Shown: piece after piece, positions 42,068 through 49,184 of the stretch | Numbering within the stretch: position 1 is the stretch's first letter | Layout of the letters: each line of letters opens with the position of its first letter | Sequence record: QB031382.1 | DNA from: a phage | DNA: 64,000 bases | Direction: 5' to 3' (one strand) | Translations under genes and position numbers: made by a program | Notes under the pieces: generated by a model | What the model was told of the DNA's origin: nothing | The model's input: the letters and a program-made list of their open reading frames with translations, nothing else | The model's database searches: none

Positions 42068-42258
42068 AAGTAAAGTATCTGGCTGAGGGTATGAGTAGGT
42101 ATTTCACCCTTGGTGAAGAATATTGGCCCTTTACGGAAAATGGAGATGTATACGTGAAGGATGACCAAGGTGTGCCGTGGTTTCTGCACCATAATGGGTT
42201 GGGGTATTCCATCTACTGCGGTGCAGTGAACAACACAACCCTTGCAGAGTTTGTCTAG
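42064..42258 (+). CDS. small protein, KDDxG paralog family member
   Basis: 64 aa; GEEYWPFTENGDVYVKDDQGVPWFL. Confidence 0.4.
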   Translation: MKVKYLAEGMSRYFTLGEEYWPFTENGDVYVKDDQGVPWFLHHNGLGYSIYCGAVNNTTLAEFV

Positions 42259-42268
42259 AGGAGGCAGA

Positions 42269-42640
42269 ATGTTAGTAAAAGGTACCCACACAGTAAAGCA
42301 ACGTATTGAAGTTGAGATCGATGATTGTGAGCTGAAGCATATTTTGCGGTCATGCTCCAACGTTTTGCTCCTTAGTATTCTCCAGGAGCGAGCGGAGAAC
42401 GAGTTCTTAAATGCACTGGCAGGCCGTCCTGGGGACTTCTGTGTGCGTAAGCGTGAAGATCATAAGTCATGGTTGTGGGAAATCGATGCCGACTGGGATT
42501 ACCACAAAAATGAGGGCATAGATGAGCCTATTCGTGAATTGACAGATAAAGAGATTCAGATGTACAATGAAGTTTGTCATTGGGCAAAACGCCAACAAAT
42601 TTACCTCGACCCTGTGTGGATGATTGAAAATAGCCATTGA
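42269..42640 (+). CDS. hypothetical protein
   Basis: ATG after RBS AGGAGG; about 123 aa. Confidence 0.4.
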   Translation: MLVKGTHTVKQRIEVEIDDCELKHILRSCSNVLLLSILQERAENEFLNALAGRPGDFCVRKREDHKSWLWEIDADWDYHKNEGIDEPIRELTDKEIQMYNEVCHWAKRQQIYLDPVWMIENSH

Positions 42641-42665
42641 CAAGAAGTAAGATTGGATATAAGAT
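42637..42665 (+). promoter_or_regulatory. sigma70-like promoter
   Basis: -35 TTGACA overlapping upstream stop, 17-bp spacer, -10 TAAGAT. Confidence 0.45.
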
Positions 42666-45951: not shown

Positions 45952-45980
45952 AGCCCTGCCCGAAAGGGTGGGGCATTTTT
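45952..45980 (+). terminator. rho-independent terminator
   Basis: Stem CCCTGCCC-GAAA-GGGTGGGG then CATTTTTG; duplicate of 35467 element. Confidence 0.55.
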
Positions 45981-45999: not shown

Positions 46000-46416
46000 A
46001 TGACATTAGAAGATATCATTGTTAAACCTGAGAACTATGACCAATACAATCTATCAACTCAATCTGTGGACCTTGGATGCGCCACTGCCAGTGCGTGGCT
46101 GGTTAACGGAAAAGAGCTGGATAAATGCTTAGAAGCTCACATGTCTATTAACAAGTTTCTGGATGAAAATACTCACTGGCTTGAGGGTGCAGGCGTATAT
46201 GCTTCATGGTTGGAGAGTATGGGATTCGACTACCAATCTGAAGAGGGGTGGTGGAGCTATTTAGCTATCTGTCCAGAGACGCTACAATGCTTCATGAAAT
46301 ATTCTGAAGATTTGGAGTACCGGGCGATGGTTGATAGTGCTATTGCCCGTTATAGCCGTAAACCTTTTTCCCACGACATTAAAACTGTGGAAGAATTTGT
46401 TGAAGTTTTCTGTTGA
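46000..46416 (+). CDS. hypothetical protein
   Basis: 138 aa, RBS AAGGAGA. Confidence 0.4.
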   Translation: MTLEDIIVKPENYDQYNLSTQSVDLGCATASAWLVNGKELDKCLEAHMSINKFLDENTHWLEGAGVYASWLESMGFDYQSEEGWWSYLAICPETLQCFMKYSEDLEYRAMVDSAIARYSRKPFSHDIKTVEEFVEVFC

Positions 46417-46441
46417 CACAGATTGAAAGGTGTGCAATTAT
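46413..46441 (+). promoter_or_regulatory. sigma70-like promoter
   Basis: -35 TTGACA overlapping stop codon, about 17-bp spacer, -10 AATTAT/TATAAC. Confidence 0.35.
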
Positions 46442-46512
46442 AACTTCATAGAACGGGAGGACGTGATGAACGAAGAAAACTGGGATGTATAACTAACAGG
46501 AGGCCACTGCCC

Positions 46513-46710
46513 ATGATTTATCGAATCCGTGTAAGAGAAGATGCACCAGGCTGTTACTTTGACTGGCGTGGGTGGTGGTTTCTCCACCCGATGGATGGAC
46601 TCACAGATAGAATGCTGGATGCTGCCCTTTATACAGATACCGACATAGAATATAATCTCTATCTGAAGGACGGTATAGATAACGGTCTATTTGAAGCAAT
46701 TCCTGTGTAA
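46513..46710 (+). CDS. hypothetical protein
   Basis: 65 aa, RBS AGGAGG. Confidence 0.35.
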   Translation: MIYRIRVREDAPGCYFDWRGWWFLHPMDGLTDRMLDAALYTDTDIEYNLYLKDGIDNGLFEAIPV

Positions 46711-46778
46711 GAGGATGTGATAGCCATGTTTTATGATCTTCCTATAGCGCCACCACCTGTTGAACCCGGAGAACTAAG

Positions 46779-47204
46779 ATGACCTATGAAATGCCAAAAC
46801 TGATTCGTGACGATGCCCAAAACGCTCACACCATTATTATGGGCAAACGCATGGATATTATTTGTCATAAAGATTTCTGGGAAGGAAGTTACTTCACAGA
46901 GTATTTTGGTAAACTGGACAATGGTCTGCTGATCCAGTTCTACACCGATGCGGAAAACAACATTCACTGGGAGTTCGAAACTGAAGATATCCATAAACTT
47001 TTCACCTTCCTCGGTATTAAGGTTGAGGCCAAGTTTGAAGAAGGTGAGTGCGACGATTGTGGATTCTACGAGGTAACAGATTTCTATCTTCCGAGTGGTG
47101 AGAACCTTTACTATGAAAGCCACTTCGGTAACTCCAATATGCCACAGTGCTGGACTGAGTTTTTTGAAATTGTGGAAGAGGAGTTGGCATATCGTGATTA
47201 TTGA
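46779..47204 (+). CDS. hypothetical protein
   Basis: 141 aa. Confidence 0.4.
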   Translation: MTYEMPKLIRDDAQNAHTIIMGKRMDIICHKDFWEGSYFTEYFGKLDNGLLIQFYTDAENNIHWEFETEDIHKLFTFLGIKVEAKFEEGECDDCGFYEVTDFYLPSGENLYYESHFGNSNMPQCWTEFFEIVEEELAYRDY

Positions 47205-47652
47205 TACTGTAGAGGGAGATTTAATCTCCCTTTTTAAGAGTGGTGCTGGTCACCTGATCCACGGTTGTAACTGCTTCCACACAATGGGCAAGGGTGTAGC
47301 AAAACAGATTGCCCGTGAGTTCCCTCAAGCATTGGCAGCTGACAAAACGACTACCTACGGTTGCCTAAGTAAGCTAGGTGCGTTCTCTCGGTGGGAGCAC
47401 TTATCTCCGAAAGGTATTGTCTACGGAATCAATCTATACACTCAGTTCTACCCAGGGCCTAATGCTGAATATTTCTCAATTCTGAAAGGCTTTGAACGAG
47501 TCAATGAGATATTCAAGGGATCTACTTTACCATTCTACATCCCTAAGATTGGGTGCGGCATAGGCGGCTTGAAATGGGGACACGTAGAGGACGTTATTAA
47601 CCTTGCCACTTTTGATATAGATATTATCGTGGTGGAGTACAAAGAGTGTTGA
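47194..47652 (+). CDS. macro-domain protein (ADP-ribose binding/processing)
   Basis: GTG start after RBS GGAG; motifs IHGCNCFHTMGKGVAKQI and IGCGIGGLKWG match macro-domain signatures. Confidence 0.55.
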   Translation: MIIDTVEGDLISLFKSGAGHLIHGCNCFHTMGKGVAKQIAREFPQALAADKTTTYGCLSKLGAFSRWEHLSPKGIVYGINLYTQFYPGPNAEYFSILKGFERVNEIFKGSTLPFYIPKIGCGIGGLKWGHVEDVINLATFDIDIIVVEYKEC

Positions 47653-47677
47653 CAGCCGGATTTTAAGGTGGTATAGT
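47649..47677 (+). promoter_or_regulatory. sigma70-like promoter
   Basis: -35 TTGACA, 17-bp spacer, -10 TATAGT. Confidence 0.45.
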
Positions 47678-47705
47678 CACCACAACGATTAAGACAGGGG
47701 GCACT

Positions 47706-47906
47706 ATGGAGACTAAAATCTTAATTCTAGCTGTGATAGATACAACAGAAGGGGCTATATTTGAATCTGCAGGAGGGTATTTCTACCTGCCCTATGGAAA
47801 AAGAACTTCCGAGCCGAGTAAAGATTCAATCCTCAAAGTGTTCCCGTGTTCTTTCTGGCTGGAGATTCTGGTAGAGGATTGCAAAGGATTGGAGAGACAA
47901 TTATGA
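47706..47906 (+). CDS. hypothetical protein
   Basis: 66 aa. Confidence 0.35.
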   Translation: METKILILAVIDTTEGAIFESAGGYFYLPYGKRTSEPSKDSILKVFPCSFWLEILVEDCKGLERQL

Positions 47907-48097
47907 GAAACAAGAAAGAGCTTTACTCTGGTGAGTGGATCAACGATCAACAGATCGGAGAGGTAACCTGCTTCCGATGTTTTACCAGGTACAATATTAA
48001 AACTGCACCAAAAAGTGTTCCAAAGACTGACGGTTATTACATAAAAGAACCTCATTGCCCAAAATGTAAATGCCGATTGTACTGGAGCAATCTGTAA
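47903..48097 (+). CDS. small zinc-ribbon protein
   Basis: ATG after RBS GGAGAGA, ATGA overlap; CFRCF ... CPKCKC. Confidence 0.4.
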   Translation: MRNKKELYSGEWINDQQIGEVTCFRCFTRYNIKTAPKSVPKTDGYYIKEPHCPKCKCRLYWSNL

Positions 48098-48101
48098 GAG
48101 G

Positions 48102-48129
48102 TTGACATCTGAAAACTGCAGTGTATAAT
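48102..48129 (+). promoter_or_regulatory. sigma70 consensus promoter
   Basis: -35 TTGACA, 16-bp spacer, -10 TATAAT. Confidence 0.5.
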
Positions 48130-48160
48130 ATACTCATAAACTAACAGAGAGCGATGTATT

Positions 48161-48352
48161 ATGGTAATTTTTAACCGGGATGGTATCATAGTTAGACAGC
48201 ACCCGTTCCTTGAATACTATCAAATTGAGCAATGGTGCTACGGGGATTGCAGTCACTCCTATGGGCAAAGTTGGGGATATCGCACAGTTTTTGAATCAAC
48301 AGACCTTGACAAAGTAAGACAGAAAGTTTTAGAACTTATTAACAACAAGTGA
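48161..48352 (+). CDS. hypothetical protein
   Basis: 63 aa. Confidence 0.4.
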   Translation: MVIFNRDGIIVRQHPFLEYYQIEQWCYGDCSHSYGQSWGYRTVFESTDLDKVRQKVLELINNK

Positions 48353-48359
48353 GTATGAT

Positions 48360-48692
48360 ATGGTAACATTAGAAAGACGTAAAGCTATTGCCGCTACACT
48401 GGCAGACATCTTTTGGGATTGTAATTTAAAAGATACCCGATATTGCGGCGCATCTGTAGATGTATTATTCCCACGGCCCACCATTGTTGCAATGGGCAGT
48501 CTACTGGGCGTAGTTGCAGGTGCATGGGATAAGGAAGGCGGTTTTTATATCTGGCAACCTGACTACGGTACCTGGAAAGAAGTAAGGGGTGCTGATGACT
48601 TTGGGCCTGCAGTTGCTAAGATGGATGGCTGGGAAATTTATGTTGGAAACGACATGAAGCTGAAAGGCGAGATTGTTTACTGGTTACCTTAA
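48360..48692 (+). CDS. hypothetical protein
   Basis: 110 aa. Confidence 0.4.
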   Translation: MVTLERRKAIAATLADIFWDCNLKDTRYCGASVDVLFPRPTIVAMGSLLGVVAGAWDKEGGFYIWQPDYGTWKEVRGADDFGPAVAKMDGWEIYVGNDMKLKGEIVYWLP

Positions 48693-48712
48693 GAAAGTGC
48701 AGGAGATAAAGT

Positions 48713-48958
48713 ATGAACAAAGGGTGGACATTCGTAGACGGCGTTGAAAACATGCCTCTCGGAAAGTATATCGTAGCCATGGCTGACAAGAATGGCAATG
48801 TAGATTTCGGAGCTTGCGAGGTTGTTCTTGCAGGATCTGGTGGCTATGTGCACAAAACTGGGGTAATTAATGGTCAGTTCTACTTTGATCACAACCCTGT
48901 TGTAGCGTATATGGCTATGCCAGAGTTCAAGCTACCAAAGGAAGGTGCTGATGTTTAA
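48713..48958 (+). CDS. hypothetical protein
   Basis: 81 aa, RBS AGGAGA. Confidence 0.4.
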   Translation: MNKGWTFVDGVENMPLGKYIVAMADKNGNVDFGACEVVLAGSGGYVHKTGVINGQFYFDHNPVVAYMAMPEFKLPKEGADV

Positions 48959-49184
48959 GCTTAAATCTGCATGGAACATTGCTGTAGGCGATGAGATCCG
49001 CATTCCGGGTGGGAAGACCGTTATGAAGATATCCCGTATTGAATACGAAGGTGACCGTGTATTCCATATTTTTGCAGAAGATGGTCGAGAAATTTATATA
49101 CAGGCGGGCTCACACATCTATATTCGTAAAGGGGATGACAAACGACAGAGATCATCATTTCAACTGCAGGGTATGTATTCCTGA
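48951..49184 (+). CDS. hypothetical protein
   Basis: ATG after RBS AAGGAAGG. Confidence 0.4.
   Translation: MFKLKSAWNIAVGDEIRIPGGKTVMKISRIEYEGDRVFHIFAEDGREIYIQAGSHIYIRKGDDKRQRSSFQLQGMYS

Follow-up and report, generated by a model that had tools for sequence, protein, structure and literature searches.

Resistance of phage T4 to the toxin-antitoxin defense system DarTG2 has recently been traced to its macrodomain protein Tk.4. A HIDEN-SEQ transposon screen of T4 on a DarTG2 host returned tk.4 as the sole significant hit, and a clean knockout of the gene rendered T4 sensitive to DarTG2, which led to the new gene name adfM, for anti-DarT factor macrodomain (preprint 10.1101/2025.11.20.689424). 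This result fits the observations that T4 without adfA and adfN is still resistant to DarTG2 and that the NADAR-type AdfN proteins act on guanine adducts only. A cellular macrodomain protein, SCO6735 of Streptomyces coelicolor, is an efficient eraser of the ADP-ribose placed by DarT on thymidine in DNA and reverses this modification both in cells and in vitro; the mutants Q85A and Q85E have no activity. Another stand-alone phage macrodomain, gp104 of PhiKZ, also called AdfM, overcomes DarTG2 through the removal of ADP-ribose from DNA and is imported into the phage nucleus (Cell Rep 2026, PMC13309987). Here, we describe a macrodomain gene located at positions 47194 to 47652 (plus strand) of a 64,000-nucleotide stretch of phage DNA (sequence record QB031382.1), which we refer to as the window. 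Its 152-residue product was identified as the Vequintavirus orthologue of T4 tk.4/adfM by means of its translation, Pfam, PHROG, AlphaFold2, Foldseek, BLASTP, and the annotation of related phages. By analogy with the proteins mentioned above, we consider it probable, with a rough probability of 0.6, that the window protein removes the ADP-ribose installed by DarT2 on thymidine in single-stranded phage DNA.

The window protein aligns with T4 Tk.4 over 150 of its 152 residues with 39% identity (BLASTP, 121 bits, E value of 8e-41), and the identity is 47% with Tk.4 of the T4 relative ime09 and 66% with that of the Krischvirus (RB49-like) Sf20, whose tk.4 gene occupies the canonical vs-tk.4-tk locus. 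Furthermore, PHROG 335 (“phosphatase”) is matched over its full length (1e-58). As judged from these alignments, the window protein belongs to PHROG 335 and is orthologous to T4 Tk.4 (AdfM) over its full length. In a tblastn search, a homologue was found in 2,817 of 50,697 phage records, mainly those of large myophages, in keeping with a published estimate that 41% of myoviruses possess a macro domain. The window segment from 46000 to 49000 shows 93 to 97% nucleotide identity to more than 100 E. coli Vequintavirus myophages, including rV5, FV3, HMD-6, SYGMH1, and several BASEL phages, and the macro gene itself is found in about 114 to 119 Vequintavirus records. The labels given to the coding sequence in related rV5/FV3-like records are “Tk.4,” “macro domain protein,” and “phosphatase,” and the gene was thus on record before, ORF 209 of rV5 having been deposited as “Tk.4 conserved hypothetical protein.” The same 46000 to 49000 segment is 87 to 97% identical to 16 records of the MG0656xx series (e.g., A142, D1, and C9) that are named “Campylobacter phage,” with Campylobacter jejuni as the host; these are probably mislabeled or contaminant assemblies. 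Among phage contigs that carry other members of the family, the macro gene adjoins genes for an Rnl2-type RNA ligase, Thg1, and a NADAR protein in L009 (390 to 4737), lies near genes for a PNK-like kinase and an RNA ligase in L012 and L013 (4906 to 6453), and is two genes away from a second macro gene in L014 (3948 to 4391). No conserved partner gene is common to the six metagenomic or other phage contexts of the family.

A previous sequence-only reading of this DNA had assigned the protein to the macrodomains on account of two motifs, IHGCNCFHTMGKGVAKQI and IGCGIGGLKWG, and had proposed a Pfam profile search and structural modeling as checks, the lack of a macro fold being taken as a refutation. 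Both motifs are indeed present in the translated protein. The Pfam Macro profile (PF01661) gives 26.9 bits and an E value of 5.1e-6, above its gathering cutoff of 22, and the AlphaFold2 model, built with 42 sequences, displays a confident macro fold of three alpha/beta/alpha layers, with a pLDDT of 95.9 and a pTM of 0.91. When a family profile of 43 members was compared with the PDB, only macrodomains were retrieved, i.e., DarG of M. tuberculosis (1e-17), TARG1 (1e-16), BT1257, SCO6735, Poa1p, and DarG of T. aquaticus, with the matches to DarG, TARG1, BT1257, SCO6735, and Poa1p ranging from 1e-17 to 1e-15. The same five proteins were the top PDB folds in Foldseek, with Poa1p in first position and template modeling (TM) scores between 0.72 and 0.79; out of 167 matches with an E value of at most 0.001, ranks 1 to 20 are all macrodomains, and so are ranks 21 to 50, save for a few designed serine hydrolases and one plant complex. 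MacroD-type macrodomains and viral X-domains obtained far lower scores than these five. In addition, the PADLOC model of DarG matches the window protein at 6.6e-13. The window protein is a stand-alone macrodomain of the ALC1-like class, which comprises TARG1, DarG, SCO6735, and Poa1p. Among the viral models in BFVD, the matches include phage macro proteins with TM scores of 0.83 to 0.93, one of them being Tk.4 of Acinetobacter phage 133 (0.89). The best viral structural match (TM score of 0.93, 39% identity) is A0A481YV05 of Marseillevirus LCMAC103, in which the matching part is the macro portion of a 302-residue protein named “SNF2 subfamily protein,” so that a predicted Tk.4-type macrodomain is also present in eukaryotic giant viruses.

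The alignments allowed us to locate the elements of the putative active site. The first motif (residues 22 to 39, IHGCNCFHTMGKGVAKQI, encoded at 47257 to 47310 on the plus strand) contains His23, the invariant Asn26, and the phosphate-binding G-x-G loop formed by Gly32, Lys33, and Gly34, and in the profile alignment it corresponds to NTVNCVGVMGKG of DarG. The second motif (residues 119 to 129, IGCGIGGLKWG, 47548 to 47580, plus strand) is the second Gly-rich ADP-ribose-binding loop, which aligns with IGCGLDRLQW in TARG1 and LGVGNGGLDW in DarG. Both loops, G32-K33-G34 and G120-C-G122-I-G-G125, are invariant or nearly so in the family alignment, and the residues invariant among the 43 members (G24, N26, G34, A36, N80, Q84, G88, P117, G120, and G122) are all retained in the window protein as well as in T4 Tk.4. 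In particular, Gln84 (codon at 47443 to 47445, plus strand), which belongs to an invariant N-x-Y-T-Q motif in the family and profile alignments, is found in 43 of 43 members. The corresponding N-L-Y-T-Q segment aligns with N-F-P-T-K in DarG and L-I-T-K in TARG1, i.e., Gln84 takes the place of the catalytic Lys, K80 in T. aquaticus DarG and K84 in TARG1; moreover, the position of Asp125 of TARG1 is taken by a Gly. In SCO6735 (numbered as in the PDB chain minus a 20-residue tag), His24, Asn27, Lys34, and Gln85 align with His23, Asn26, Lys33, and Gln84 of the window protein. Since SCO6735 requires Gln85, the presence of Gln at this position is compatible with the removal of ADP-ribose from thymidine in DNA, and the catalysis of the window protein is probably SCO6735-like rather than DarG-like.

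It is possible to hypothesize a mechanism on these grounds. Host-type promoters would express the macro gene along with the other small accessory genes of its block, and the protein would bind the ADP-ribose that host DarT2 has attached to thymidine in single-stranded phage DNA, with Asn26 and the two Gly-rich loops positioning the distal ribose and the diphosphate. The bond between thymidine and ribose would then be hydrolyzed through a Gln84-dependent, probably water-mediated mechanism, as we infer from SCO6735, and, with ADP-ribose released, replication would continue. That the residues of the active site never vary within the family indicates that catalysis is selected for, and for this reason we regard it as very improbable that DarT is neutralized mainly through stoichiometric binding, even though SCO6735, DarG, and TARG1 remain inhibitors of DarT in vitro when catalytically dead, SCO6735 being the strongest. 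The window protein is also without the DarT-binding C-terminal domain of DarG. As for the removal of ADP-ribose from DNA, the anti-defense role suggested by the sequence-only reading is reinforced by the orthology to a protein that acts against DarTG2 in T4, and for the window protein itself we infer it from there.

The orthologous gene of the Vequintavirus Bas54 has been included in a published transposon screen. The genes bas54_0089 to bas54_0092 of Bas54 have exactly the same lengths (417, 198, 426, and 459 nucleotides) and spacings as those in the window. For the last of them, bas54_0092, insertions were tolerated on E. coli K-12 at 31 of 31 TA sites, and the gene was rated as nonessential (10.1101/2025.11.20.689424). 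It was no hit in the Bas54 screens reported in that work, in which Bas54 was not challenged with DarTG2.

Several points weigh against the proposed role. The anti-DarTG2 phenotype has been shown for T4 Tk.4 only, and the identity of the window protein to the experimentally tested T4 protein is just 39%. The T4 result is of a genetic nature and comes from a preprint, in which de-ADP-ribosylation by Tk.4 was inferred (10.1101/2025.11.20.689424). The papers that we found contain no report on the sensitivity of Vequintavirus phages to DarTG2. The ALC1-like macrodomains are also promiscuous, with TARG1 and SCO6735 acting on proteins too, and the long Lys-rich mobile loop of SCO6735, proposed to be a DNA clamp, is absent from the window protein. 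The substrate of Poa1p is ADP-ribose-1''-phosphate. Finally, members of the Tk.4 family adjoin RNA-repair genes in other phages, and rV5-like genomes encode a sirtuin-based RNA-repair module predicted to make ADP-ribose phosphates.

The last points lead to an alternative according to which the protein would be devoted to the housekeeping of small ADP-ribose derivatives, either ADP-ribose phosphates or acyl-ADP-ribose, deriving from an NAD-dependent RNA-repair module of the phage. Poa1p is the top Foldseek match, and the family goes by the name of “phosphatase” in both PHROG 335 and RefSeq; relatives of the gene adjoin Rnl2 and Thg1 genes in L009 and those of a PNK-like kinase and an RNA ligase in L012 and L013. 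In Bas58, the module bas58_0211 to bas58_0215 (19612 to 22737 of L018) consists of a sirtuin, an RNA ligase, a polynucleotide kinase, and a phosphoesterase. Phage V5 is the prototype of the sirtuin NAD-dependent RNA-repair system in Iyer et al. 2022, which is predicted there to produce ADPr>P, and in the view of the same authors the targets of phage macro domains are mostly soluble derivatives. However, the sole experimental phenotype of the Tk.4 family is the anti-DarTG2 one, and a distance of about 50 kb separates the macro gene from the sirtuin module, to which it is unlinked; indeed, Iyer et al. note no adjacent macro gene. Moreover, the sequence alignment with Poa1p is limited to the two Gly-rich loops, T4 possesses Tk.4, yet no sirtuin or KptA is annotated in its tk.4 region, and L009 contains, besides the RNA-repair genes, a NADAR gene, whose product has the fold of the anti-DarT1 factor AdfN. 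We therefore deem this alternative unlikely.

The promiscuity of the class brings in a further alternative, namely, that the protein erases ADP-ribosylation other than that of DarT2, on proteins or RNA modified by different host toxins or defense transferases, or acts on several substrates. TARG1 and SCO6735, which belong to the same class, hydrolyze both protein-linked and DNA-linked ADP-ribose, and the deep allelic diversity of the gene (81% amino acid identity within Vequintavirus and 58% within Tequatrovirus) could reflect several targets. In the reported T4 screens, however, tk.4 scored with DarTG2 only, and we consider such an activity distinctly unlikely. Within the same alternative, it is improbable that the protein balances a transferase of the phage itself, since no ADP-ribosyltransferase is annotated in Bas58; neither an ADP-ribosyltransferase nor a NADAR protein is annotated in the complete Bas58 genome, as established by a check of its annotation and not by a profile scan of every ORF.

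The sequence-only reading had also envisaged the degradation of immune signals derived from ADP-ribose, for which our analysis gave no support. Such a protein would degrade or sequester messengers such as the gcADPR or His-ADPR of Thoeris, and it is true that macro domains can bind His-ADPR, as the ThsA effector of Thoeris II does, and that soluble targets are preferred for phage macro domains by Iyer et al. 2022. No member of the Tk.4 family has this activity in the papers that we found, though, and the anti-Thoeris proteins named in them are sponges of other folds. In addition, the conserved residues of catalytic type favor the hydrolysis of a 1''-linked conjugate, and we hold a function against immune messengers to be highly improbable. 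The removal of DarT2-installed ADP-ribose from phage DNA and the alternative roles discussed here can coexist and are not mutually exclusive.

With regard to the gene itself, the ORF obtained mechanically begins upstream, at 47095. The true start is the GTG codon at 47194, because the homologues all begin with MII or MIV at this position, because the Shine-Dalgarno-like sequence GGAAGAGGAG, read at 47174 to 47183 (plus strand), precedes the GTG by 10 nucleotides, and because HMD-6, FV3, rV5, and Bas58 are annotated with an identical coding sequence of 459 nucleotides, which in the window translates into 152 amino acids followed by the stop codon. The start of the macro gene overlaps the end of the upstream ORF (46779 to 47204) by 11 nucleotides (47194 to 47204, plus strand, GTGATTATTGA). 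The same overlap is found in Bas54, Bas58, FV3, and rV5, and it suggests a translational coupling between the two genes. By comparison with Bas58, the macro gene is located 3' of the module comprising rIIA/rIIB, helicase-primase, and DNA polymerase, and it is surrounded by a long series of small plus-strand genes of unknown function.

The upstream boundary of the transcription unit can be tentatively placed at a promoter-like site at 46413 to 46441 (plus strand), which was recognized by a consensus scan of the sequence (TTGACA-17-AATTAT, with a TG element) and is preceded on its 5' side by a terminator-like hairpin at 45953 to 45974. This site is probably the start of a unit including ORF 46513 to 46710, ORF 46779 to 47204, and the macro gene. 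The first gene of the putative unit (46513 to 46710, plus strand) is an ORF from the ORF list that encodes 65 residues, of unknown function, with a profile match to phrog_9903; the second (46779 to 47204, plus strand), whose 141-residue product is also of unknown function, matches phrog_8157 and is the one that overlaps the start of the macro gene. Homologues of the phrog_8157 ORF are confined to Vequintavirus and to Krischvirus (36% identity), where they are not adjacent to tk.4, and we rejected this ORF as a conserved partner of the Tk.4 family since the Krischvirus copies are unlinked to tk.4. Downstream, the scan revealed a near-consensus sigma-70 promoter at 47649 to 47677 (plus strand, TTGACA-17-TATAGT, 11 of 12 matches, with an upstream TG). 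Its -35 hexamer includes the TGA stop codon of the macro gene, and it therefore serves the downstream small genes and not the macro gene. It follows that the sequence-only reading was right in placing the gene in a unit with small ORFs of unknown function, as far as the predicted promoters indicate, and that the “own promoter” it had mentioned, at 47649, drives the next genes instead.

The macro gene and its flanking regions have different histories. Compared with FV3, the macro gene shows 78.2% nucleotide identity, a dS of 1.12, a dN of 0.128, and a dN/dS of 0.11, whereas the genes flanking it are 99 to 100% identical, with a dS of 0.01 to 0.06. The divergent tract, determined by comparison with FV3 and rV5, extends from about 47180 to about 47880 and covers the macro gene together with the next small ORF. 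Two classes of alleles could be distinguished, one with Lys33 (MGKG) in the window phage, HMD-6, and Bas58, the other with Ala33 (MGAG) in rV5 and FV3; they share 81% protein identity, replace each other in genomes that are otherwise 99 to 100% identical, and are both under purifying selection, with a dN/dS of about 0.1. Against four orthologues, the dN/dS of the macro gene ranges from 0.05 to 0.16, which likewise denotes purifying selection. In view of a dS of 1.12 between nearly identical flanks, the genus therefore possesses at least two old alleles that have been exchanged by recombination. The allele swap combined with a low dN/dS fits a gene under the pressure of host defense, in the manner of an arms race. 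A similar divergence is seen outside the genus, with Tk.4 of T4 and that of ime09 differing by 42%. It is conceivable, albeit doubtful, that the Gln-type Tk.4 macrodomains are not single-purpose, with the Lys33 and Ala33 alleles differing in substrate or toxin (DarT2 variants or another ADP-ribosylating defense), or with the ADP-ribose phosphates of the sirtuin module being cleared as well.

The divergent tract is followed by the gene of a 64-residue zinc-binding protein (47903 to 48097, plus strand), matching Pfam PF23903 (Phage_zn_bind_2) at 9.3e-23. Its product is 77% identical to gp231 of Sf20, which is encoded immediately 3' of Tk.4 in that Krischvirus, and the gene is a possible candidate for a neighbor transferred together with the macro gene. 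Since both this zinc-binding gene (77% to Sf20) and the ORF upstream of the macro gene have Krischvirus homologues, the sequences suggest that a block containing tk.4 was exchanged between RB49-like and rV5-like phages. The zinc-binding gene was also considered as a homologue of T4 Tk.3, to which it proved to be unrelated. Apart from this zinc-binding domain, the genes near the macro gene are small phage ORFs with no Pfam match, and no tRNA genes are present within the 64,000 nucleotides of the window.

Some further features of the region deserve to be recorded. Three genes (46000 to 46416, 47194 to 47652, and 42242 to 42640) have their TGA stop codon inside the TTGACA hexamer of the next promoter-like site (TGTTGACA), the junction hexamers being located at 46413 to 46418, 47649 to 47654, and 42637 to 42642, respectively. 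The overlap of stop codon and -35 element is a recurrent compact junction between gene and promoter in this region. A sigma-70 promoter with a perfect consensus (TTGACA-16-TATAAT, 12 of 12) occurs at 48102 to 48129, and its counterpart in rV5 is annotated as promoter P205. We could also notice a mini-ORF of 18 codons (MFYDLPIAPPPVEPGELR) at 46727 to 46782 (plus strand), which overlaps the start of ORF 46779 to 47204 in an ATGA, and a second mini-ORF (MNEENWDV) 3' of the promoter-like site at 46413; both could encode leader peptides or be due to chance.

With the macro gene of the window, one more member is added to a family known from the annotation of public records, and a function was assigned to the T4 representative of this family in 2025. 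The findings are those that the field would expect, and their main value lies in annotation. For the gene now labeled “phosphatase” or “hypothetical protein” in about 115 Vequintavirus genomes, we suggest [quoted passage not shown] as a better name, and the same holds for roughly 2,800 phage records with a homologue. Since rV5-like phages find use in phage therapy and biocontrol, knowing which defense they can disarm helps in the prediction of host range. For specialists, two points may be of interest, i.e., that the name AdfM spans two types of active site and that the macro gene behaves as a swappable allele cassette.

Among the closest known systems is T4 Tk.4, with which the window protein shares the size of about 150 residues, the stand-alone macrodomain, the assignment to PHROG 335, the HGCNCFHTMG, NLYTQ, and IG-x-GIG motifs, and the Gln at the position of the DarG Lys. 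T4 tk.4 and the Bas54 orthologue are also alike in being dispensable on E. coli K-12. Different from T4, where the locus is arranged as vs-tk.4-tk.3-tk, the window gene is found in a block of small genes of unknown function 3' of the replication module, and residue 33 is Lys (MGKG) in the allele class of the window, Ser in T4, and Ala in most of the family.

DarG (5M31/5M3E of T. aquaticus and 5M3I of M. tuberculosis) resembles the window protein in fold and class (TM score of about 0.75), keeps the Asn and both Gly loops, and provides the best match of the family profile in the PDB (1e-17). However, it has the catalytic Lys80 and a DarT-binding C-terminal domain, whereas the window protein has Gln and consists of the macrodomain only, in 152 residues. 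The DarG equivalog model NF048014 of NCBIfam gives 44.1 bits against a cutoff of 250, with profile positions 3 to 143 of 338 matched, and we rejected an identity with DarG in light of this score below the cutoff, the lack of the C-terminal domain, Gln84 in place of the catalytic Lys, and the absence of an adjacent darT. With PhiKZ gp104, the general fold is common, since hhalign gives a probability of 97.7% for a remote homology, but BLASTP yields only 22.7 bits. PhiKZ gp104 is of the DarG type: it retains the catalytic Lys (FPTKDNW), and its match to M. tuberculosis DarG reaches 9.4e-25, compared to 1.3e-5 for the window protein. Membership of the window protein in the clade of PhiKZ gp104 was consequently rejected, on the basis of the 22.7 bits and of the Gln replacing the catalytic Lys, and the name AdfM has been given independently to two distantly related clades, the Gln type of T4 and rV5 and the Lys type of PhiKZ.

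Human TARG1/OARD1 and yeast Poa1p are the top structural neighbors of the window protein (TM scores of 0.75 to 0.79) and have the same Gly loops; they are eukaryotic proteins with other substrates. The Lys84/Asp125 dyad of TARG1 is replaced by Gln/Gly in the window protein, and Poa1p, despite being the top fold match, aligns in sequence over residues 6 to 46 and 115 to 145 only. SCO6735 (PDB 5E3B), like the window protein, is ALC1-like and carries Gln in place of the catalytic Lys, with an identity of about 23%. The mobile loop of SCO6735, with Lys89 and Lys93, is longer by an insertion of five residues (“gmktg”) that has no counterpart in the window protein. SCO6735 is of cellular origin and also acts on proteins, whereas the window protein belongs to a phage.

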